IMG/VR virus record: IMGVR_UViG_3300023106_000005
Location: 1 to 51,743 of that record
Reading direction: 5' to 3' (one strand)
DNA length: 51,743 nt
Source of the DNA: a virus
Taxonomy: Duplodnaviria > Caudoviricetes
Made by a program: the position numbers and the translations under genes. The notes under the pieces were generated by a model. The model made no database searches. It saw nothing but the letters and a program-made list of their open reading frames with translations, and had not been told where the DNA came from. Below are positions 1,886-49,750 of the stretch, in pieces; the stretch's first letter is position 1; each line of letters begins with the position of its first letter.

Positions 1886-4117
1886 ATGGGAAATGTAAAT
1901 CAAGGATATTTTGATCGAATAAGGTATATACTTAGAAATATTCATTTCGATGATGAAACTATTACGGAGCCTGAAGGATGGAAAAGCGATGAAGTCGAAT
2001 TGGAAAGAAGTAAAACGTACCACGGTATTTTTCAGCAATTTTCCAACTCTTTAAAATTTGTTGATGATGGGGCTTCATACATAAATACTGTTCGCCAATT
2101 ATACGGAATTAATGAACGGATAAAATTGATTCGTGAAGAAAGAAATCCTAAAACTGATGTGTGGGAACAAACATATTTCGGTTTTTTGGATTTATCTACA
2201 TGGGAAAGTCAAGAAGGCAAAATTTCGGTAAAATTCAATTCAGGAGGAATGGAACAAGCAATTAAAGCGCGTGATTCCGATAAAGTAGAAATAGATAGGA
2301 TAACCACATTTGATGGTTATCCTGTTGATTCTTTGCAACCTATTACCATTGAAGTTGATGGACGTGAAATATTTTTGAAATCTGAATATAAAGTAAAACC
2401 TGAAGAAAACCGAGTTGAATTAAATAATAGTACAACAGCAGGAAACACTAGAGGCTCAACAGTTGGAGTGCCTTTAAATTTATTCAGTAAATCGCATGAA
2501 AACGCACAATCGGTTTTGCCTGGCGGGAATGTTGGCGATAATAGTTGGGATAGAACCGCACCCGGGGAAGTTAGTAATATGTTCTTCGCGGTTTCTGATC
2601 GTAAAAGAACTTTACATATTAAATTCACTATTAAATTTACACCGGCTTTTTTAGATTTCAATGACGTTACTAATTTTAGATTTTGGTTAAGATTTGCGCA
2701 TTATAAAGACAGTAATGATTTTAATGTTAGAGAAAATAAAATGCTTTTTTCTAGTGATAGCTATTCTTATTTGGACAATAAAACATTTTCAATTTCATTT
2801 GATCAGGTTATTAATATCGAAGCAGGTGATTCTTTAGCATTGGTTTTTGATCAGAATTATGATGGCCGGGATGGTCACGGATCAAGATTAAATATGTTAG
2901 TGCGTGATATTGTGTGTAACGATTTTACAATTGAAGAAGATTCTTTTGTTGAAAAAAGCACAACCAAAGGTATTTTAATTTACGAATTATGCGATAGACT
3001 ACTTACTATCTGTACCAATCAAAAGAATTCACTTAGAAGTAATCTTTTAGGGCGTACCGATTTAGGTTATAATTTTGATGGAAAATGGTCATTGATGGGG
3101 TTTACTCACGGTTTTTGGATTCGTGGTTTTGATAAAAATTCGCCAACTGATGAAGCTGCCAAAGTTGAAAATCTTTTCAAACCATTATCAACTTCTTTCA
3201 AAGAAAATTACGAATCATTAAACGCTGTTTTGGCTGTTGGCATTGGAATTGAAAAAGAAGGTAATAAAGATGTTTTAAGAATCGAGGAACAATCATTCTT
3301 TTATAATAGAAATGTTACCGTAAGGCTTCCGAATCAAGTAAAAAAAGTAAAACGTAACGAAGCCCCGGACAGCTATTTTTCTTCATTAGAAACCGGATAT
3401 GATAAAGGCGGTGATTATGATGAAGCAATGGGATTGGATGAACCAAATGCAAAATCTAATTTTACAACTGTTATCAATGGATTGAAAAATACATTCAGTA
3501 AAGTATCAAAATTTCGTGCTGATAGTTATGGTTTTGAGTTCGCAAGAAGAAAGCCTGTAACTCTTAATAATACTGAAGATACAAGCTATGATAATGATAT
3601 TTGGTTTAATGATTTAAAAAGGGGGCCAAATAATGTATTTTTACAGCGTAAATGGCAGGATGATTTTGCTAAGTTGCCAACAGGAATTTTTAGCCCGACA
3701 ACCGCGTTTAATTTAAGGCTTTCGCCGTTCAATATAATGTTACGTCATGGATGGTTTTTTGGTGCGGGATTCGACAAATATCAAGATGAATTTGTTAGAT
3801 ATTCGAGTTCAACTGCCAACTCAAAATTAACTACTCAGTTAATCGGTAAACCTGAATATGCTGAAAATGGAGTTGTTCAAAACGCTGAATTAGACAAAGC
3901 AAGATTTGTTTGTGAAGAAATTGAGTTCGAACATGTTTGCGATTATGATGTAATGAAGCAAATTAACGGTACAACAATGATTAATGGCGTTCCTGTTAAA
4001 AATATTTATGGATTGATCGAGTTTGTAAATGAATTCAACCAAGTTGAAAAAGGTTTTCTTTTGAATTTAAAACCTACAGGAGAAGGAAAATTTAAAGTGA
4101 TAAAATTTAATAATTAA
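1886..4117 (+). CDS. Tail protein (distal tail/hub-like), 743 aa
   Basis: Directly follows TMP; beta-rich; N-terminal EPEGWKSDE motif typical of the post-TMP protein in Bacteroidota siphoviruses; function by synteny. Confidence 0.7.
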   Translation: MGNVNQGYFDRIRYILRNIHFDDETITEPEGWKSDEVELERSKTYHGIFQQFSNSLKFVDDGASYINTVRQLYGINERIKLIREERNPKTDVWEQTYFGFLDLSTWESQEGKISVKFNSGGMEQAIKARDSDKVEIDRITTFDGYPVDSLQPITIEVDGREIFLKSEYKVKPEENRVELNNSTTAGNTRGSTVGVPLNLFSKSHENAQSVLPGGNVGDNSWDRTAPGEVSNMFFAVSDRKRTLHIKFTIKFTPAFLDFNDVTNFRFWLRFAHYKDSNDFNVRENKMLFSSDSYSYLDNKTFSISFDQVINIEAGDSLALVFDQNYDGRDGHGSRLNMLVRDIVCNDFTIEEDSFVEKSTTKGILIYELCDRLLTICTNQKNSLRSNLLGRTDLGYNFDGKWSLMGFTHGFWIRGFDKNSPTDEAAKVENLFKPLSTSFKENYESLNAVLAVGIGIEKEGNKDVLRIEEQSFFYNRNVTVRLPNQVKKVKRNEAPDSYFSSLETGYDKGGDYDEAMGLDEPNAKSNFTTVINGLKNTFSKVSKFRADSYGFEFARRKPVTLNNTEDTSYDNDIWFNDLKRGPNNVFLQRKWQDDFAKLPTGIFSPTTAFNLRLSPFNIMLRHGWFFGAGFDKYQDEFVRYSSSTANSKLTTQLIGKPEYAENGVVQNAELDKARFVCEEIEFEHVCDYDVMKQINGTTMINGVPVKNIYGLIEFVNEFNQVEKGFLLNLKPTGEGKFKVIKFNN

Positions 4118-12004: not shown

Positions 12005-12058
12005 ATGGATGCAATTACAATAGAAAGAATAAAAGAATTTTTATATATTTGTATATAA
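12005..12058 (+). pseudogene. Orphaned original 5' end of the endolysin gene (MDAITIERIKEF, then LYICI-stop)
   Basis: IERIKEF duplicates IARIKEF at the start of 12807..13337; ATG 2 nt after the upstream stop. Confidence 0.75.
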
Positions 12059-12860
12059 AAAAAATAAAAAATGTTTTATATATACGGAATTTATTCTTCT
12101 GAAAACAATATCATAAGATATATAGGTTTTACTTCAAATCTATATGAAAGATTAAAAGAACATCATAAAGACTTAAAACGTAAAAAGGTTAATACTCATA
12201 AGAAAAAATGGATGTTAAAATGTATAAATAATGGACATAAATTTGATTATATTATTTTAGATAGTTCTGAATCTAAAAGTATAATATACGAATTGGAAAA
12301 ATATTATATAAATAATTACAGTTTAATAACAAAATTGGTTAATGGCACTTTAGGAGGCGATGGTGTAACTATGACTGAAGAAATTAGGAAAAAAATATCT
12401 GTTGCCAATAAAGGAAGAAAAATGACTGAAGAAAATAAAGATAATTTAAGAATCTTAAGACTAGGGACTAAACTATCCGAAGAAACAAAAAAGAAAATGA
12501 GTGATACTCATAAAAAAATTGGCACTAAAATTATTATAACAGATGAAATAAGAAAAAAATATAGCGACAGAATGAAGGGAAGTGTTGTTTTAATGACAGG
12601 TAAAAAGCACACACAAACAACAATAGAAAAAATTAGAAAAGCAAAATTAGGATGTGTTTCTAAGAAAATGAGAGCTGTATTACAGATTGATTTTAAAACT
12701 AAAAATGTTGTTAATACTTTTGAAAGCATTACATTAGCAACAAAAATAACAGGAATAAACAATATACATAGGTGTATTGTAGGAAAAAGAAAAACAGCAG
12801 GAAATTATGAATGGAAATATAAATTATGACGAATTGTCGATAGCAAGAATAAAAGAATTT
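12020..12860 (+). mobile_element. 820-bp homing endonuclease insertion bounded by 21-bp direct repeats (20/21 identical)
   Basis: ATAGAAAGAATAAAAGAATTT (12020-12040) and ATAGCAAGAATAAAAGAATTT (12840-12860); internal TATATTTG promoter at 12044-12051. Confidence 0.75.
12071..12829 (+). CDS. GIY-YIG homing endonuclease with NUMOD3 repeats and NUMOD1-like C-terminus
   Basis: YIYGIY...RYIGFT..L.ERL.EH; repeats MTEEIRKKIS, LSEETKKKMS, GKKHTQTTIEKIR; C-terminal FESI..A...RKTAGNYEWKY. Confidence 0.9.
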   Translation: MFYIYGIYSSENNIIRYIGFTSNLYERLKEHHKDLKRKKVNTHKKKWMLKCINNGHKFDYIILDSSESKSIIYELEKYYINNYSLITKLVNGTLGGDGVTMTEEIRKKISVANKGRKMTEENKDNLRILRLGTKLSEETKKKMSDTHKKIGTKIIITDEIRKKYSDRMKGSVVLMTGKKHTQTTIEKIRKAKLGCVSKKMRAVLQIDFKTKNVVNTFESITLATKITGINNIHRCIVGKRKTAGNYEWKYKL

Positions 12861-21553: not shown

Positions 21554-21662
21554 TATATTTGTCTAGTGGTTTATTGTCGGATTAATCACAAAGTAAGACA
21601 TATTAGAATTCCCTAAAGATCAGCTATCCGACAATAGCCCTTTAGGGAATTTCTACTTTTTA
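21554..21662 (+). promoter_or_regulatory. Promoter (21554-21561) plus structured leader A (two hairpins with complementary loops, terminator-like 3' hairpin)
   Basis: TATTGTCGGAT (21572-21582) complementary to ATCCGACAATA (21626-21636); TTCCCTAAAG/CTTTAGGGAA stem followed by T-rich tract. Confidence 0.75.
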
Positions 21663-21695
21663 AAACTTAATCAATAATAATTAAATATTTAAATC

Positions 21696-22304
21696 ATGGG
21701 AAAAGCCATCAAAGAAAAAGAAGTGAACGAAGAAGTTCAAGACGTACAAAAAGATTTTGAAATCAAATCTGCATCAATTAAAGACCATCAATGTACTTAT
21801 GGCTATGAAATTTTAACCGGGCCAACTCGCGGAGATCTTATTCCGGGGCGAAAAGGAGTTCATTTAATTCATGATGATTTGAATGAATGTTTTTCAGAGT
21901 TAAGCATTTTCCTAATGCATATCGATGATTATTTCAAAAACGATGAAAACGTAAATAATCAAACGCCTTTATCGAAATTGGAGGAACATGAAGATTTAAA
22001 TCGTTATTGGGTAACAGGTTTCAAAGTTACCGGATTCGATGAAAATAAATCAATTATCCTAACGGGTGAAAAATCTGTAACAAATGGGTTAATTAAAATT
22101 GTTTCGCCTAAAATCAAACTCGATGGTACTTATTTGTACGTTGAAGAATTGAACGAAAGGCTGCGTATTGCTTTGAATGAGGTTGAAGCGTACATGAATG
22201 GTAAATCAGCGCCTAAATTGGAACAAACCGAATTAGATCTTCAAACTTTTGCACAAGAGGATAATTTACCAATTATTGGTGATATGGAATCTGCTGAAGT
22301 TTAA
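21696..22304 (+). CDS. Conserved Bacteroidota phage protein, acidic (202 aa)
   Basis: IKSA.IK...H.DL...EV.AY..GK motif; function unknown. Confidence 0.7.
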   Translation: MGKAIKEKEVNEEVQDVQKDFEIKSASIKDHQCTYGYEILTGPTRGDLIPGRKGVHLIHDDLNECFSELSIFLMHIDDYFKNDENVNNQTPLSKLEEHEDLNRYWVTGFKVTGFDENKSIILTGEKSVTNGLIKIVSPKIKLDGTYLYVEELNERLRIALNEVEAYMNGKSAPKLEQTELDLQTFAQEDNLPIIGDMESAEV

Positions 22305-22307
22305 TTT

Positions 22308-23468
22308 ATGGTTTTTCAAGAACGTCAGTACCAAAAAGATGCGATAGCACACGGAATAAATTACCTTCTTGGCGATTCTAAAGAAAATGCATTACAGATA
22401 CTACCGACCGGCTCAGGCAAGTCGGTAGTAATTGCAAAAATATTAGAGCCATTGCCAGGGAAAACGGTAATACTTCAACCATCAAAAGAAATCTTAGAAC
22501 AGAACTATGAAAAGTTTTCAAAATATGGTAGAGCTTCTATTTATTCAGCATCGGCCGGACAAAAAGTAATTGATCGAATTACCTTTGCAACTATCGGTTC
22601 TATTATTGAAAAGCTTCACATGTTCAAAGGAACTGACTATTTCCTTATAGATGAATGCCATTTGTGTGGTCCGGAAAAAGGAATGTATCAAAAACTTTTT
22701 AAAGCTTTTCCGAAAGCTAAATTTTTAGGATTAACCGCAACGCCTTACAGATTGACCCAAACGGAAGATGGGGCGCAATTAATTTTTCTTACGCGCAGCC
22801 AACCAAGATTATTTCATAATGTTCTTTATTACGTTCAAAATTCAGTTTTATTTGATGCCGGATATTTAGCTAAACTAAGATATTTCTCTTATGATGTAGT
22901 TGACAGGTCTAAATTAGAAATGAATAGTTCAGGAACCGACTTTACAACAGCGAGTTTAAGCCGATTATATAAATCTATAGACATGCCTTCAAAAATTGTA
23001 ATGTACGCTAAAATGATACTTTCTAAGCGAAAAAACGTTTTGATATTTTGTGCTACTATAGTCGAAGCGACAATTGTAATGCGCAGAATGCCGGGATCTG
23101 CAATTTTAACAGGAGAAACAAAAACCCTTGAGCGTGAAAGAATTTTAGCCAGGTTCAAAAAAGGAGAAATAAAATGTTTGATCAATGTAGGGGTTTTAGT
23201 AGTAGGCTTTGATTATCCTGCATTAGAAGCGGTTTTAATTGCCCGCTCAACAATGTCATTATCATTATATTATCAAATTGTTGGCCGTGTAATGCGTATT
23301 TTTACCTACCCTGATGGAACAAAAAAAGAAGGTTGGGTTGTAGATTTGGGAGGAAATATAAATTTCTTTGGAAAGATTGAAACAATGATCATCGAGGAAC
23401 CGAAAAAAGGTCAGTTTTCTATATGGAACAATGGAAAACAGTTAACAAATGTTCCGTTAATTAAATAA
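22308..23468 (+). CDS. Superfamily 2 DEAD/DEAH-box helicase (RadD/YejH-like)
   Basis: R.YQ, LPTGSGKS, DECH, LTATP, GFDYP, QIVGRVMR. Confidence 0.93.
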   Translation: MVFQERQYQKDAIAHGINYLLGDSKENALQILPTGSGKSVVIAKILEPLPGKTVILQPSKEILEQNYEKFSKYGRASIYSASAGQKVIDRITFATIGSIIEKLHMFKGTDYFLIDECHLCGPEKGMYQKLFKAFPKAKFLGLTATPYRLTQTEDGAQLIFLTRSQPRLFHNVLYYVQNSVLFDAGYLAKLRYFSYDVVDRSKLEMNSSGTDFTTASLSRLYKSIDMPSKIVMYAKMILSKRKNVLIFCATIVEATIVMRRMPGSAILTGETKTLERERILARFKKGEIKCLINVGVLVVGFDYPALEAVLIARSTMSLSLYYQIVGRVMRIFTYPDGTKKEGWVVDLGGNINFFGKIETMIIEEPKKGQFSIWNNGKQLTNVPLIK

Positions 23469-23485
23469 CTTTAATAATAAATATT

Positions 23486-24118
23486 ATGAAAAAAATAAAC
23501 ATGACTGAGCAATTGGAACATTTAATTTCTGAAGAATCCCGGATTAAAGAAACTCATTTACAGGAATTTTGGAGTAAAAACCAACTGCCTGAAAAATTAT
23601 TCACAGTAGATCGTTTAGGAACTATTAGAGAAATTGAAATCACAGGAAATCATATTGGTTATCTATTTGAAGATAGAAATATTTGGCGACCGAATTATGA
23701 TAAAGAAAAAAGACCAAGCAAAAATTTAGTCGTTGCGTATATTGAATACGTAGAATCAATAAAAACCGCTGAACAGGTTGTTTATATTGATTATCGTGAT
23801 AGGGGTACAGGCTGTTATAAATATTCTGATTTAATAAAAGAACCTCATTTTGCATTTAATGAATTGGAATTACAAACAGAATCAAAAAGGCTTTCTGAGA
23901 CTTATGCACCAAAAGAAAATCATACTGCATGCGGTTATTGCGGAAAACAAACGCCTAATGATAAATTAGTAAATAGTACTATTATCGGGCGTGGGAGAAA
24001 AGAAGTTTATAACGATTGGAAAAGACGTTATGAAAGTAGAGCATATGTAACGCATGAACCTATGAAATTTTGCTCAGCAACTTGCGCAGGAAATGAACAA
24101 ATGTTACGTGAAGGATAA
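23486..24118 (+). CDS. Hypothetical protein with C-terminal Zn-finger-like CxxC...CxxxC
   Basis: CGYCGK and FCSATC. Confidence 0.7.
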   Translation: MKKINMTEQLEHLISEESRIKETHLQEFWSKNQLPEKLFTVDRLGTIREIEITGNHIGYLFEDRNIWRPNYDKEKRPSKNLVVAYIEYVESIKTAEQVVYIDYRDRGTGCYKYSDLIKEPHFAFNELELQTESKRLSETYAPKENHTACGYCGKQTPNDKLVNSTIIGRGRKEVYNDWKRRYESRAYVTHEPMKFCSATCAGNEQMLREG

Positions 24119-24133
24119 TTTAAATTATAAATC

Positions 24134-24388
24134 ATGCCAACATGGAGAGAACACGCATCGCCAATTATAGCAAAAGTAATTGCTGATAATAAAGGAAAAA
24201 CACCAAATGAGATAAAAAAGGCTTTACATTCTGCCTATCCTTATAGAGAACGCGCCCGACACCCGTATAAAATATGGTGTGATGAAATAAAAGTTCAATT
24301 AAAAACTAAAGTTTCAAATTTAAAACCTCAACCGGAAAATCAGATCGATTTATTTGATATGATCCAAGAAGTTGAAAAAGAAAAGTAA
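24134..24388 (+). CDS. Conserved phage hypothetical protein (84 aa)
   Basis: W...A..II....AYP..ER..HPYKIWC.E motif. Confidence 0.75.
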   Translation: MPTWREHASPIIAKVIADNKGKTPNEIKKALHSAYPYRERARHPYKIWCDEIKVQLKTKVSNLKPQPENQIDLFDMIQEVEKEK

Positions 24389-24390
24389 TT

Positions 24391-24645
24391 ATGATAACAC
24401 CTGAAATTTTACACGAAAAAGCATTCTATTTTGAATCAGAAGAAAATGGAATATTCCAAAGATATGTTAAACAAATTGATGAAAATGTCGATTTAGTAAT
24501 TGAGGTAAGCCCGGAACAAAGAATTTTTGTTTATATTTTTGAAGATCAAGAAACGAAACACGAAGAAGGAGTAGTTATCCTTTTAAATACTGATGATGTT
24601 GATTTTGCTATTAAAGTTGCGGAATGTATTATTGGTGTAGAGTAA
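24391..24645 (+). CDS. Hypothetical acidic protein (84 aa)
   Basis: Packed in operon. Confidence 0.65.
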   Translation: MITPEILHEKAFYFESEENGIFQRYVKQIDENVDLVIEVSPEQRIFVYIFEDQETKHEEGVVILLNTDDVDFAIKVAECIIGVE

Positions 24646-24806
24646 TTTAAAATCATTATAAATTACCTTAAATTGTTTGTACATTGAAATAAATGTGTAT
24701 TTTTGTCAATGTAATCTACCACTTACGATAAAGACATTTTAGTGTAAAAACTAAACCGACAAATCCGTTAATAGTGTGGTAGCTGTTAACGGATTTTGTC
24801 ATTTTT
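24645..24806 (+). promoter_or_regulatory. 19-bp palindrome (24645-24663), promoter TATTTTTG (24698-24705) and structured leader B
   Basis: CTACCAC (24716-24722) in a hairpin loop complementary to GTGGTAG (24776-24782) in the loop of a long stem (24758-24800). Confidence 0.75.
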
Positions 24807-24818
24807 AATACTTTTATT

Positions 24819-25067
24819 ATGATAACACCAAAACAACAAGCAGTAAATCTTATTGAAGATTTTTTAGACAATCATACTCAATTCGGAGGTATAGGAATAA
24901 CCGAAAAACAAGCGATTAATTTTGCTTTAATTACTGCTAAAAAAATGCATTATGAATTATCAGATCTTCCACGCATTCCATACAATGAAAAAAGAACAGA
25001 TTATTGGAAAATGGTAATTTATGAACTTGAAAAACTTTTAGCTTTAATTAAGGTTATAAAAAAATAA
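24819..25067 (+). CDS. Hypothetical phage protein, MTPK family (82 aa)
   Basis: TPKQQA..LI...A...ALI...YWK.V..ELEKL. Confidence 0.7.
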   Translation: MITPKQQAVNLIEDFLDNHTQFGGIGITEKQAINFALITAKKMHYELSDLPRIPYNEKRTDYWKMVIYELEKLLALIKVIKK

Positions 25068-25071
25068 TATC

Positions 25072-25362
25072 ATGATTAGTAAAAAAGTATATCGGTATTA
25101 TGCCGATTGTGGTAAAGCGTATTGGACAAAAAGAGCGTGTTTAGATCACGAAAAGATTTGCATATGTTGGAAGAATGCAAAATTTAAAACATGCTTAACT
25201 TGCGTTCATAAAAATATTAAAGTTGATGATGATGGTGAACAGTCTTGGCAATATAATGACTGTAAAAACCCTGAAATGAACCTCAACACTATGTTTATTC
25301 CTGCGCACGAAAAAGCGGATTATATTTGTATTAATTGCCCTAAATGGGAGTTAAAAACTTGA
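25072..25362 (+). CDS. Cys-rich hypothetical protein (96 aa)
   Basis: DCGK...C..HE..C, CLTC, NCPKWE. Confidence 0.7.
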   Translation: MISKKVYRYYADCGKAYWTKRACLDHEKICICWKNAKFKTCLTCVHKNIKVDDDGEQSWQYNDCKNPEMNLNTMFIPAHEKADYICINCPKWELKT

Positions 25363-25364
25363 TT

Positions 25365-26237
25365 ATGGCTGAGAATAAGAAAGGGTTTCTTTTGTATGCA
25401 AATTACATAGGAACAATTAATCAACTTCCGGATGAAGTAGCAGGAAGATTGTTTAAGCATATTTTTGCTTATGTAAACGATCTTAATCCTGTTAGCGATG
25501 AATTATTGCTTAATGTTGTTTTCGAACCAATAAAAAACCATTTAAAAGATGATTTAGAAAAATACATATTAGGTAAACATGATAAAAGTTTAAGTGGTAG
25601 GATTGGTAATTTAAAGCGCTGGCACAAAGATTTGTACGATGATTTTGCAGCCGATAAGCTTAATTTACAAGAAGCTGAAACAATCGCACAAAATCGCAAA
25701 GTATCGCACCGCGATGTTTCGCCATCGCAACACATCGCAAACATCGCTGTTATAGATATAGTAAAAGATAAAGCTATAGTTAATGATAAAGTAAAAGCTA
25801 TAGTTAAAGTAAAAGATTCTTTTGAATTAGAAGAAACTAAGGAGTACGTAGCATTTGAGGAATTAAAAATTCCTCCCAACTCTCCAAAAATTGATTTTAT
25901 GAAACTTCAAAAGTATTTTAATGATAATCGTGGAATGCTTCCTGAAGTTAAAAAAATGTCAGATGCAAGAAAAAAAAGGATTTTGGTTTTAGAAAAGCAA
26001 TACGGAAAAGATTTGATTTTAACCTGTATTAACAAAACTAGGGATTCACCATTTTTACAGGGAGAAAATAAAGCCAATTGGATTGCATCATTTGATTGGA
26101 TTTTTACACCGGCTAATTTTTTAAAAATAATAGAAGATAACTATGAAAAACGAATTAACACCTCAGGAAAAACAAACGAACAAATATTTGTCGACGCAAT
26201 GCAGTCAGAAACAGCTAAAAACTTTAGATTTAAGTAA
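25365..26237 (+). CDS. Replication initiator (DUF6291-like N-terminus, lambda O-like organisation)
   Basis: KKGFLLY......L.DE.AGRLFK.IF.Y; central low-complexity repeats; C-terminal SPFL.G.N...W.A.FDW.....NF.KI.E.NY. Confidence 0.85.
   Translation: MAENKKGFLLYANYIGTINQLPDEVAGRLFKHIFAYVNDLNPVSDELLLNVVFEPIKNHLKDDLEKYILGKHDKSLSGRIGNLKRWHKDLYDDFAADKLNLQEAETIAQNRKVSHRDVSPSQHIANIAVIDIVKDKAIVNDKVKAIVKVKDSFELEETKEYVAFEELKIPPNSPKIDFMKLQKYFNDNRGMLPEVKKMSDARKKRILVLEKQYGKDLILTCINKTRDSPFLQGENKANWIASFDWIFTPANFLKIIEDNYEKRINTSGKTNEQIFVDAMQSETAKNFRFK
25683..25817 (+). repeat. Putative replication origin: ATCGC iterons plus AT-rich repeats within the initiator gene
   Basis: ATCGC at 25683, 25693, 25703, 25724, 25734, 25743 (~10-nt phasing), inverted copy at 25711; followed by AAAGCTATAGTTAA repeated twice. 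Confidence 0.65.
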
Positions 26238-39869: not shown

Positions 39870-40016
39870 AATGATTCTTAACAAAATATTTTTTATATTT
39901 GGGTTCTAATCTAAAATAGATATTTAAATATTTTATAATCTAAAAAACATAGCCTATGTAATTATTTAACATTAACTAAAAACTAAACGCATCGCCTTTA
40001 TTGTCGGTGCGTTTTT
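39864..40016 (+). other. Palindrome (39864-39882), promoter (39894-39901) and terminator (39985-40016) enclosing a ~110-nt ORF-less unit
   Basis: GTTTAGAAT-G-ATTCTTAAC; TATATTTG; AAACGCATCG...CGGTGCGTTTTT. Confidence 0.5.
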
Positions 40017-43681: not shown

Positions 43682-43689
43682 TATATTTG
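43682..43689 (+). promoter_or_regulatory. TATATTTG promoter for the tRNA-like RNA
   Basis: TAnnTTTG ending 4 nt before the predicted acceptor stem. Confidence 0.7.
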
Positions 43690-43693
43690 TTAT

Positions 43694-43926
43694 TCGGGAT
43701 TGGCGGAATAGTGGTAGTAAGGTGTATTTATCCCACAACTAAAACACGTGGTAGACGCTAAAAAAATAGAAGTAAGTGAATAAGTTTTTTTGAATTACAG
43801 AAGCCTGAGTAATAGTCTTATCAATTAAACGAAATCTAACCGAGGATTACAGCCTTATTAATTTAAGTCTCAGGTATCCGTTGAAAAAATCGGTTTCACG
43901 TGAAGGTTCGAATCCTTCATCCCGAA
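43694..43926 (+). ncRNA. tRNA-like RNA (~233 nt): class II (Leu-like) acceptor, D and T arms with large internal insertions
   Basis: Acceptor TCGGGAT/ATCCCGA; TGGCGGAAT...GGTAGACGC D arm; GAAGG-TTCGAAT-CCTTC T arm; no canonical anticodon arm. Confidence 0.75.
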
Positions 43927-43984
43927 CAACTATAGCGAAAGGCGAATTTAGAGAGAAAACAGTAATTAAAAATTGTTTTCATGT

Positions 43985-44013
43985 AAAACCACTCATAATT
44001 GAGTGGTTTTTTT
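43985..44013 (+). terminator. Intrinsic terminator after the tRNA-like RNA
   Basis: AAAACCACTCA-taat-TGAGTGGTTTTTTT. Confidence 0.9.
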
Positions 44014-48760: not shown

Positions 48761-49148
48761 TGACTTGTTTAAATTTATCAGGCAGATTGAAAAAGAAATT
48801 GTAAAGCTGAATGTTGACCAAATAAACATTGATAGCAAAGATATTTACAATAAGAATATCGGTTTTTATTCTTATATGACTGAAGTTATTACTAATGGAA
48901 GAAAAAAAAGAGGCGAACCTTTCGATGGTAAAGAATCCGGTAAATGGTTAGGCAGTTTTTACGTTGATATTCAGGGAAAAGCTTTCAGATTATTTGCTAC
49001 AGATCCGAAAACACATCTTATTTTAGATAGTGAACATTGGCTTTCAGATGATTTATTTGGACTTACTGACAAAAATCTTAAGGAGTTAATCGCTAGTCGC
49101 TTAGCTCCTTTTTTTATTGAAAACCTCAGAAACAACTTAGATATATGA
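48699..49148 (+). CDS. Neck/tail morphogenesis protein candidate (149 aa)
   Basis: Y...T...K.....G....S.......D.K...L......FGLT motif; synteny. Confidence 0.55.
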   Translation: MANFNQQLKKARSLTPTRLSNDLFKFIRQIEKEIVKLNVDQINIDSKDIYNKNIGFYSYMTEVITNGRKKRGEPFDGKESGKWLGSFYVDIQGKAFRLFATDPKTHLILDSEHWLSDDLFGLTDKNLKELIASRLAPFFIENLRNNLDI

Positions 49149-49750
49149 TTTACAACAGCCTTGATACGATCCCCCATAAAACGTTTTTAAAAATTGCCGC
49201 AACAGGTGATTTTTCTTTATTAAGTGATGCCGAAGAAAGTTTGACCATCTTACAAATAATTTGGGAAAAACTATTCCAGGAACATTTAGAACTTGATAGC
49301 ACACCGGAATCAAAAAGAGAATTCAGAATTACTTTAGATGTTGAATCTTTAGAAATGGAACATAAATTTATTGTCGGCGCATGTGATTGTTTAGAATTTG
49401 ATATTGATGATGAATTAATTGAAATTTTGAAATCAAAAAGATACGTTATTAGAACTGATAATACTGAAAACTACTATCACGACATAAACCAAGTAAAACG
49501 TTTCGCAAAAGGTCTAAATATCAAGATAAAAACGCTAAAGAACCAATTGCCAAAAGAAGATTCAGAAGAAAACCAACCTTTGCAACATGAAAAATTAACA
49601 ATTGATGATATAATGTGTGGTTATGCTGATATTATGGGATTTGATTTTGATTACAATACGGTTTCTTATATGAAGTTTAGAGCAATTAAACGCCAAGTAA
49701 ATAAAAAGATGAAACAAATATCAGAACAAAACGCGAAAGCTAAAAAATAA
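49145..49750 (+). CDS. Tail assembly chaperone candidate (201 aa)
   Basis: Directly upstream of TMP. Confidence 0.55.
   Translation: MIYNSLDTIPHKTFLKIAATGDFSLLSDAEESLTILQIIWEKLFQEHLELDSTPESKREFRITLDVESLEMEHKFIVGACDCLEFDIDDELIEILKSKRYVIRTDNTENYYHDINQVKRFAKGLNIKIKTLKNQLPKEDSEENQPLQHEKLTIDDIMCGYADIMGFDFDYNTVSYMKFRAIKRQVNKKMKQISEQNAKAKK

Follow-up and report, generated by a model that had tools for sequence, protein, structure and literature searches.

The question raised by the present locus is whether two 5' leaders located ahead of the replication genes of a phage, each carrying a pair of complementary hairpin loops, represent a genuine class of regulatory RNA and, if so, how such an RNA is likely to act. 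The stretch of DNA analysed (hereafter the window) is the complete 51,743-bp genome of a phage of the Caudoviricetes (IMG/VR record IMGVR_UViG_3300023106_000005), which has direct terminal repeats, is 100% complete by the estimate of the record, has a G+C content of 31.5% and carries nearly all of its genes on the plus strand. The two leaders, referred to as A and B, had been described in a first-pass annotation as an uncharacterised family of attenuators or small RNAs (sRNAs) gating replication genes. Leaders A and B belong to a large family of 5' leader RNAs, 95-130 nt in length, in phages of Flavobacteriia; the family is real and widespread and is apparently undescribed. Its anatomy consists of a promoter, a 5'-terminal hairpin (H1) and, about 40-60 nt further on, an intrinsic-terminator hairpin, with a loop-loop (kissing) pairing of 6-11 bp between a segment of the first loop (L1) and a segment of the terminator apex (L2).

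All coordinates previously assigned to the parts of leaders A and B were verified on the sequence (Table 1), as was the exact complementarity of the loops, which extends over 11 nt in leader A (TATTGTCGGAT against ATCCGACAATA) and over 7 nt in leader B (CTACCAC against GTGGTAG). The calculated energies are -19.6 kcal/mol for the terminator hairpin and -14.1 kcal/mol for the L1:L2 duplex of leader A, and -22.0 and -9.1 kcal/mol, respectively, for those of leader B. Nested folding of both leaders is stronger than that of shuffled sequences (z = -3.9 for leader A and -4.9 for leader B). By their shape, leaders A and B as well as the type C leaders described below possess an intrinsic terminator, i.e. 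a GC-containing stem-loop followed by a U-rich tract on the transcribed strand; in the type C terminator, 6-9 U come after an 11-bp stem that has a GC base, and the hairpin of leader B was also called independently by a terminator scan. The gene context given earlier was likewise borne out, with a helicase operon behind leader A and the operon of a replication initiator, composed of a DUF6291 N-terminal part and a DnaD-like C-terminal part, behind leader B.

The layout of complementary loops in leaders A and B is not due to chance. A structural scan that demanded a complement of at least 7 nt containing three or more G/C, stems flanking each segment and a T-rich tail found five matches in the window, two of which have a promoter 12-30 nt upstream; in 100 dinucleotide shuffles of the window the mean number of promoter-linked matches was 0.06, and two such matches were reached in only one shuffle. 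The heptamer AAGACAT, which the first-pass annotation had regarded as a shared linker, was rejected as a motif of the family: it is not enriched in the window (five matches against 10.6 expected), all three copies outside the leaders lie in coding sequence, and relatives of leader B carry AAGAAAT or AAGATAT or no linker at that place. Its occurrence in both leaders is, as judged from these comparisons, incidental.

Relatives of the two leaders were retrieved via the downstream proteins, the conserved leader-B promoter and the whole records G001-G005. Applied to six whole phage genomes (303,726 bp, both strands), the structural scan gave 33 matches. In twelve of these a TAnnTTTG box begins 18-21 nt ahead of L1, and every one of the twelve is a leader of the kissing architecture, two or three to a genome; the remaining 21 are without such a promoter (one has a box 68 nt off) and are reverse-strand images or noise-like. 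For distant relatives, 57 loci of initiator homologues were scanned, to which a scaffold pattern scan added more, and these 57 loci revealed the kissing architecture in much more distant phages. The carriers include IMG/VR phage contigs and three cultured phages, the latter found by a search with the initiator protein. Leaders could be grouped into types A, B, B' and C and several further types (Table 1). A blastn search with a type C leader against the phage collection gave no match, and a scan of bacterial genome contigs for the type C scaffold, in which only that exact pattern was tried, gave 86 matches, none of which is a leader. One member of the family, at L085 5909-6030 on the minus strand (G004), is odd: it has the loops GGGCUGAA/UUCAGCCC, its first-hairpin loop contains an extra small terminator-like hairpin with a U-tract of its own, and it scores 29 bits with a pseudoknot-blind model.

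At the gathering threshold, Rfam 15 gave no match in the window; permissive scans of leaders A and B returned His_leader as the best match, at 27.3 bits against a threshold of 49; a search of 17 leader-bearing loci found only a tRNA; and among the c4 models only c4-2 responded, on the minus strand and at 14 bits against a threshold of 41. A comparison with Rfam had been set beforehand as a test of the novelty of the family, and the proposal of an uncharacterised RNA with complementary loops stands, with relatives found and no Rfam 15 family matched. No description of such a leader was found in the literature: the available part of the main text of Weinberg 2017 (PMC5737381) does not mention a kissing-terminator leader, and the IMG/VR-derived catalogue of 10,006 candidate structured RNAs, as it is described in part of PMC10690425, may list it in its supplements.

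The covariation within the family indicates that the loop-loop pairing is under selection. For type C, an initial MAFFT alignment was structurally inconsistent and was replaced by an alignment to a covariance model of 22 sequences that contained only the nested helices and no pseudoknot. In this alignment, 93.1% of the 596 cells of the full structure including the kiss are paired against 69.7% in column shuffles, with none of 500 shuffles reaching the observed pairing, and slid partners reach 31-47%. The kissing helix, formed by columns 23-30 and 85-92, has six of its eight pairs changed on both sides and 94.7% of its cells paired; one misplaced L2 gap in five near-identical rows (the L024 group) produced five 'other' and five gap cells, and ungapped, these rows form 8/8 kissing pairs. 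RNAalifold, run on the type C alignment with no structure supplied, returned exactly the L1:L2 helix as the consensus. Ten distinct L1/L2 combinations were observed, nine of which pair 8/8 in register (two of them with one G.U) and the tenth of which forms 9 bp one column out of register, while non-cognate combinations pair at a mean of 5.0 of 8 positions. This column-based comparison replaced a broad cognate/non-cognate test (42 x 55-nt regions), which was too blunt, with a cognate mean of 8.1, a non-cognate mean of 5.2 and 9% of the non-cognate values at 7 or more. As the sequences are related, the shuffle counts are not probabilities, and the argument rests on the slid controls and the independent pair types.

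Other types behave similarly. In type B' (plain MAFFT alignment, seven rows), 55 of the 56 kissing cells are paired and four of the eight pairs are changed on both sides; over the whole structure the paired share is 96.8%, compared with 83.9% in shuffles, none of 500 of which reaches the observed value. All 11 pairs of type A hold in five rows, with a mid-helix swap from C-G to G-C in G003, and one H1 pair (G-C to A-U in G003) and one inner-stem pair also covary. In type B, CTACCAC/GTGGTAG is common to the window and three relatives (L140, L150, L158), and G005 has GCACTAC/GTAGTGC in the same columns, with three pairs changed on both sides. Thus, complementary loops are kept by compensatory changes across homologues, as befits a kissing-loop pseudoknot, and the complementarity in homologues, the other test that had been fixed in advance, is both conserved and covarying. 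Natural covariation, which the first-pass annotation saw between the two window leaders, occurs within types A, B, B' and C; leaders A and B themselves belong to different subtypes and are not mutually covarying copies. For a tertiary contact, the covariation seen in these alignments is unusually clean.

As a ASCERTAINMENT-free check, the kiss-blind covariance model was applied to 91 sources totalling 865,433 bases, which yielded 51 matches at E<=1. Of these, 31 are training sequences or identical copies, and the remaining 20 rows correspond to 19 distinct places. Sixteen of these 19 show an exact complement of 6-11 nt between the first-hairpin loop and the terminator apex (examples in Table 1). 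The three places without a complement (L076:4992, L085:13145 and L083:97) are plain-terminator- or noise-like.

The structure belongs to the sense RNA, because among the 596 cells of the 28 type C pairs G.U or U.G occurs in 46 and A.C or C.A in only 2, classes of pair that would be equivalent on the other strand or in duplex DNA. The promoter and the U-tract have one common orientation in every member.

The loops are built in a few recurrent ways. In type C the first loop consists of an 8-nt L1 abutting the 5' stem strand followed by a 6-nt A/U-rich spacer (e.g. AUUAUA), and the upper loop of the terminator consists of a 2-nt spacer followed by an 8-nt L2 abutting the 3' strand. In general pseudoknot geometry, a helix of about 8 bp needs one short connector and one of about 6 nt if its deep and shallow grooves are to be crossed. 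Type B' has the loop modules of type C in swapped order, its 5' hairpin being the 2-nt-spacer module (AA-GUGAGACG) and its terminator apex the 3'-spacer module (CGUCUCAC-ACCUU); therefore, one subtype circularly permutes the other, and identical 8-mers recur across the types (G005 and L041 versus G001 and tooticki). The circular permutation, read from these sequences, suggests that what is conserved is the kissing complex. The two loops of type B are each 8 nt long with 7 nt paired, as in classical kissing hairpins. Whatever the type, the 5' hairpin always pairs with the apex of the terminator, and it does so in type B as well, whose conserved middle hairpin would have been an available partner. 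The unpaired stretches are more conserved than the helices, with 0.24 differences per site in the linker and 0.25 in the spacer against 0.51 in H1, 0.45 in L1, 0.42 in L2, 0.41 in the upper stem and 0.36 in the lower stem. Conserved unpaired nucleotides flank the type C kissing helix (AC|A-rich spacer and GU), and the conserved unpaired positions differ among types A, B, B' and C.

The gene context of the leaders was examined at 55 initiator loci with at least 200 nt upstream, two further loci being too short to judge. In 32 of the 55, the scan placed a leader no more than 600 nt ahead of the initiator homologue, and seven more leaders, overlooked by the scan owing to G.U pairs, a bulge or a variant -7 box, were seen by eye (L010, L018, L020, L038, L044, L014 and L033), so that at least 39 of the 55 loci have an upstream leader. 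At L003 and L004, about 750-850 nt containing small open reading frames (ORFs) separate the leader from the initiator downstream of it, an arrangement also found in the window; the leader of L059 is short and plain, and at several loci the initiator is inside an operon. In 21 of the 32 scanned loci, 9-28 nt separate the end of the terminator from the beginning of the initiator match, a gap that leaves no room for a further promoter. The element occurs ahead of more than one kind of gene: in the window it also heads the helicase operon, and it directly precedes a NUMOD4/HNH homing-endonuclease gene both in G005 (L089 301-935) and in tooticki9-1 (L127 1109-1687), where the gene is annotated as endonuclease. 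The earlier proposal that these leaders gate replication genes thus fits their adjacency to the initiator and the helicase and is too narrow with regard to the HNH genes. The occurrence of the leader before HNH genes in two unrelated phages suggests that it travels with, or limits the expression of, potentially harmful nucleases.

A comparison of the window with its near-identical relative G001 shows how the leaders are exchanged. The two have a nearly identical promoter (62 of 64 positions) and a nearly identical start of the downstream gene, and between these G001 carries a leader of another type; window 24706-24806 (type B) and L001 7116-7235 (type B'), the latter from a relative that shares 99% identity with the window in the protein by which it was retrieved, are not alignable. 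Since the type is replaced exactly between conserved flanks, the leader behaves as an exchangeable cassette.

As regards the mode of action, the leaders have the arrangement of an attenuator, with the terminator placed between the only promoter and the first gene, both at the window leaders and, with the short gap described above, in 21 of the 32 loci. No TAnnTTTG lies between the terminator and the ATG in leader A or leader B, and no leader peptide was seen next to either. Because no other promoter intervenes between the terminator and the first gene, the downstream genes would be expressible only by read-through, and because their expression needs read-through, the element would gate them. 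The constant choice of the terminator apex as the partner further argues for a functional link between the kiss and termination or 3'-end formation. The reading considered to be on balance probable, if only modestly so, is that the element is a cis-acting promoter-proximal attenuator whose terminator is locked by the kissing pseudoknot. Transcription would start at the host-type promoter and the first nucleotides would fold into the 5'-terminal hairpin; the pre-formed loops would kiss co-transcriptionally once the terminator apex leaves the polymerase; the kiss would lock or pre-organise the terminator fold, and most transcripts would end as a short leader RNA. Read-through into the downstream genes would be a fixed leak, or may be raised by a factor that binds or opens the kissing complex. 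The anatomy, covariation, strand, distribution and gene context are observations, and from them are inferred the occurrence of termination, its partial or regulated character and the direction in which the kiss works; that the kiss promotes termination is, taken alone, a tentative proposition of rather less than even likelihood.

Several observations weigh against a kiss-locked attenuator. RNAalifold, applied to the full and the truncated type C alignments, found only H1 or L1:L2 and no conserved antiterminator fold. The portion of the hairpin active in the exit channel of RNA polymerase does not include the apex where the kiss forms, so that the effect of the kiss on termination is not obvious, and the terminator of leader B, at -22 kcal/mol, is stable alone and should fold without the kiss. 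A search of the complete genome found no NusG-like (PF02357) or Q-type (PF03589) antiterminator, the early genes scanned showed no RNA-binding domain, and the regulating factor is hypothetical. To our knowledge, almost nothing is known of the timing of gene expression in phages of Bacteroidota.

A promoter, a transcript of about 100 nt and a strong terminator are also the layout of a bacterial sRNA gene, and the leader could accordingly be a compact nuclease-resistant RNA that acts in trans on a protein or another target, with read-through being incidental. Such a role would agree with the better conservation of the unpaired stretches over the helices (0.24/0.25 against 0.36-0.51 differences per site), and a terminator loop in a kissing complex has a precedent in OxyS-fhlA, as outlined in part of PMC11979758. 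It is nevertheless unlikely, as the first gene follows 9-28 nt past the terminator in 21 of 32 scanned loci and has no space for its own promoter, the conserved unpaired stretches differ among types A, B, B' and C and offer no common seed, and loops locked in cis would not be free for pairing in trans. The loops themselves invite a further reading, in which the terminated leader RNA kisses the nascent leaders of other copies or of co-infecting relatives and sets read-through in a loop-specific manner; the family would then be an RNA-only copy-number sensor, or a system of heteroimmunity or incompatibility, in virulent phages of Flavobacteriia, and new specificities would arise by compensatory changes and by whole-cassette swaps such as that between the window and G001. 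Only complementarity and loop presentation seem to be needed, with at least 20 different loop pairs on similar scaffolds; the leaders of one genome always carry different loop pairs; L013 and L019 differ at four of the eight kissing pairs on a nearly identical scaffold; and the exact replacement of the leader-B cassette in G001 also speaks for such a system. Parallels would be the control of plasmid rep leaders by antisense RNA, and the RNAs P4 CI and P1/P7 C4. This address code, including its role as a sensor or immunity system, is nonetheless judged quite improbable: the kissing helix evolves no faster (0.45/0.42) than H1 (0.51) or the upper stem (0.41), no antisense promoter was seen at the window leaders (no minus-strand TAnnTTTG lies within or beside either, the nearest being at 22029 and 24464/25915), the extra copies of the leader-A loop at 39997 and 49367 are absent from G001 and G002, no integrase or repressor was found among the approximately 40 window proteins scanned, and an intramolecular kiss should outcompete an intermolecular one.

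The RNA may alternatively address the polymerase or a protein rather than another RNA. HK022 putL and putR are two-hairpin RNAs just past early promoters, and the leaders, which occur in two to three copies per genome, each directly past the promoter at the head of an operon, and have conserved unpaired nucleotides flanking the kissing helix, could likewise modify RNA polymerase for processive antitermination or serve as a docking platform for an antiterminator (N-boxB/LoaP-like), with the U-tract as a pause site. As the second hairpin of type C is a canonical terminator with a GC-rich base and 6-9 U, which put RNAs are without, the complete genome encodes no NusG paralogue or Q-like protein, and the conserved unpaired positions are few and not common to the types, this role has a low probability indeed. 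Nor do the integrated terminator, the pseudoknot and the invariant type C positions of this 5' leader make a convincing riboswitch, in which the pseudoknot would be the ligand pocket and the terminator the expression platform: no conserved core runs through the types, type B with its fully paired 7-nt loops and 1-nt spacers has no pocket, Rfam gave no match, and the initiator, helicase and HNH endonuclease genes share no metabolite logic, which makes such a switch very improbable. The least probable reading, that the nested inverted repeats act as DNA, i.e. as an origin, a single-strand initiation signal or a protein-binding site, could draw on the adjoining replication genes and on the reverse strand, which also folds well (z = -3.5 and -3.4), and is countered by the excess of G.U over A.C (46 against 2), by the fixed orientation of promoter and U-tract in every member and by the HNH endonuclease genes that are also preceded by the element.

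Table 1. Positions of the leader components, the leader types and carriers, and the principal genomic features (positions refer to the window unless another record is named)
Feature	Position	Strand	Remarks
Leader A promoter, -7 box TATATTTG	21554-21561	+	Bacteroidota type TAnnTTTG
Leader A 5'-terminal hairpin H1 (GTGGTT/AATCAC)	21566-21589	+	loop holds L1 = TATTGTCGGAT, 21572-21582
Leader A AAGACAT linker	21595-21601	+	
Leader A terminator hairpin	21607-21651	+	12-bp stem AATTCCCTAAAG/CTTTAGGGAATT, 21607-21618 with 21640-21651
Leader A terminator apex, L2 = ATCCGACAATA	21626-21636	+	
Leader A U-rich tail UCUACUUUUU	21652-21661	+	
First genes behind leader A	21696-23468	+	202-aa ORF (phrog_9513); SF2 helicase (ResIII/Helicase_C, phrog_16)
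Leader B promoter, -7 box TATTTTTG	24698-24705	+	55 nt upstream conserved among relatives
Leader B 5' hairpin H1 (GTAA/TTAC)	24711-24726	+	8-nt loop UCUACCAC; L1 = CTACCAC, 24716-24722
Leader B AAGACAT linker	24731-24737	+	
Leader B middle hairpin (UUUAGU/ACUAAA)	24738-24755	+	kept in type B relatives; not the kissing partner
Leader B terminator hairpin	24758-24800	+	8-nt loop UGUGGUAG; L2 = GTGGTAG, 24776-24782
Leader B U-tract TTTTT	24802-24806	+	
Genes behind leader B	24819-26237	+	two small ORFs (82 and 96 aa; no family match); replication initiator
Type A			window leader A, G001, G002, G003, L062
Type B			window leader B, L140, L150, L158, G005
Type B'			G001, G002, G003, G004, L062, tooticki, elemoC
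Type C			most populous subtype; directly upstream of initiator
Further types			L009/L014, L028-L031, L039-L052, L018, L020, L025, L032, L036, L038, L044, L058
Flavobacterium phage vB_FspP_elemoC_14-1A	L126:2128-2249		cultured
Flavobacterium phage vB_FspS_tooticki9-1	L127:1109-1207 and 2144-2261		cultured; two leaders
Cellulophaga phage phi13:2	L128:2389-2494		cultured
Kiss-blind model match	L058		GTGCAT/ATGCAC
Kiss-blind model match	L036		AGTGGAAC/GTTCCACT
Kiss-blind model match	L032		TGTGCG/CGCACA
Kiss-blind model match	L025		CCTGAGAA/TTCTCAGG
Genome layout, first part			tail and structural genes, then homing endonuclease, then endolysin
Genome layout, early block	from promoter 14273		RecT, metal-dependent hydrolase, NinB, YopX
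Genome layout, leader-bearing part			leader A, 202-aa ORF and SF2 helicase; leader B, two small ORFs and replication initiator
Genome layout, beyond initiator			PAPS reductase, ParB, NinG, terminase, portal, major head protein

The other promoters of the window (14273, 31111, 34599 and 44066) have short and plain leaders. The same is true of the homing endonuclease gene (phrog_314; 12071-12829, plus strand) located between the tail genes and the endolysin, which has its own TATATTTG promoter at 12044. The 11-mer TTTATTGTCGG of the leader A loop, for which about 0.035 copies are expected in the window on a composition estimate, recurs in a terminator loop at 39997 and at 49367 inside the ORF 49145-49750. 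The former copy belongs to an sRNA-like unit at 39894-40016 (plus strand) that comprises a promoter, about 100 nt and a terminator, has no kissing partner and holds the 11-mer in its terminator loop CCUUUAUUGU-CGG. The two sites were considered as a conserved trans partner of leader A and dropped, both being absent from G001 and G002, which carry an identical leader A. The L2 heptamer of leader B also occurs twice in an RNA-like region, at 43711 and 43748, which is not significant for a 7-mer with about 1.3 copies expected per strand. This region (43682-43935, plus strand) has a TATATTTG promoter followed by about 250 nt of non-coding sequence; its ends resemble a tRNA acceptor stem (5' UUCGGGAU, 3' AUCCCGAA, with the T-arm-like GAAGGUUCGAAUCCUUC adjoining) and are separated by about 170 nt. 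ARAGORN detected no tRNA or tmRNA in it, Rfam gave nothing at the gathering threshold or at E<=1, and its folding does not surpass that of shuffled sequences (z = -0.8); beyond it, at about 43975-44005, lies a separate terminator. In elemoC, a tRNA-Ala occupies a comparable promoter-proximal position.

The family marks the heads of replication operons in many phages of Flavobacteriia, and its covariance model would flag promoters, operon starts and replication modules in the uncultured ones. The two-loop architecture is simple and mutable, which allows clean testing by loop and compensatory mutants, for which three cultured phage-host pairs are available, namely elemoC_14-1A on Flavobacterium sp. 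BAL314, tooticki9-1 on Flavobacterium sp. LMO9 and phi13:2 on Cellulophaga baltica #13. If the kiss sets the efficiency of the terminator, the leaders would represent a new attenuator design, based on a tertiary contact to the terminator apex itself, and would provide natural orthogonal loop pairs comparable to the ones that synthetic biology derives from pT181; should the RNA act in trans, the leaders would constitute an RNA-based specificity system in a phage group with none known.

The leader family is a variant of the cis-regulatory leader-terminator element. By analogy, its closest counterparts in function appear to be the antisense-driven attenuators of plasmid rep genes and the P4 CI and P1 C4 RNAs. 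The rep leaders of the plasmids pT181, pIP501 and pAMbeta1 undergo transcription attenuation driven by an antisense RNA through a fast loop-loop kiss, in which the partner loop lies on a countertranscript of the opposite strand and acts by switching between alternative leader folds. The phage leaders resemble them in that an RNA leader ending in an intrinsic terminator lies between a promoter and a replication-initiator gene and in that the sequence is free to vary while the loops stay complementary; they differ in having both loops in one sense RNA, with no antisense promoter or alternative fold found. Attenuation of the pT181/pIP501 type by a countertranscript was therefore excluded, there being no antisense promoter at the leaders. 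In P4 CI and P1/P7 C4, segments of the leader control premature termination ahead of replication or antirepressor genes and compensatory substitutions change the specificity; these RNAs are processed by RNase P, pair with linear target sites and belong to phages that infect Proteobacteria. Complementary segments within one early leader transcript are a feature common to both, and an immunity RNA of the P4 CI/C4 type was excluded as no c4 model matched. With lambda pR'-tR' (6S RNA), where Q antitermination works via DNA and a sigma-dependent pause, and with the HK022 put sites, the leaders have in common a promoter followed at once by a terminator, an operon that needs read-through and two sites per phage, each heading an operon. 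The put RNAs contain no terminator, however, neither put nor lambda pR'-tR' has complementary loops, and unlike lambda the window genome has no Q-like (PF03589) or NusG-like (PF02357) gene.

The UpxY/ops system of Bacteroides, as set out in part of PMC11685472, acts through the non-template DNA. The loop of the OxyS terminator, according to the relevant part of PMC11979758, pairs in trans as an sRNA with the fhlA mRNA and acts on translation; it is thus, as in the phage leaders, a terminator loop used as a base-pairing surface, whereas the phage kiss takes place within one RNA. In structure, the closest relatives would be the intramolecular loop-loop kisses of the purine and lysine riboswitch leaders, in which, as described in parts of PMC2018637 and PMC3082890, the loops L2 and L3 kiss within a 5' leader that controls an intrinsic terminator. 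In these riboswitches both loops lie in a ligand aptamer with a conserved core and the terminator is separate, whereas in the phage leaders no conserved core is present and the terminator apex itself is one of the two kissing partners.

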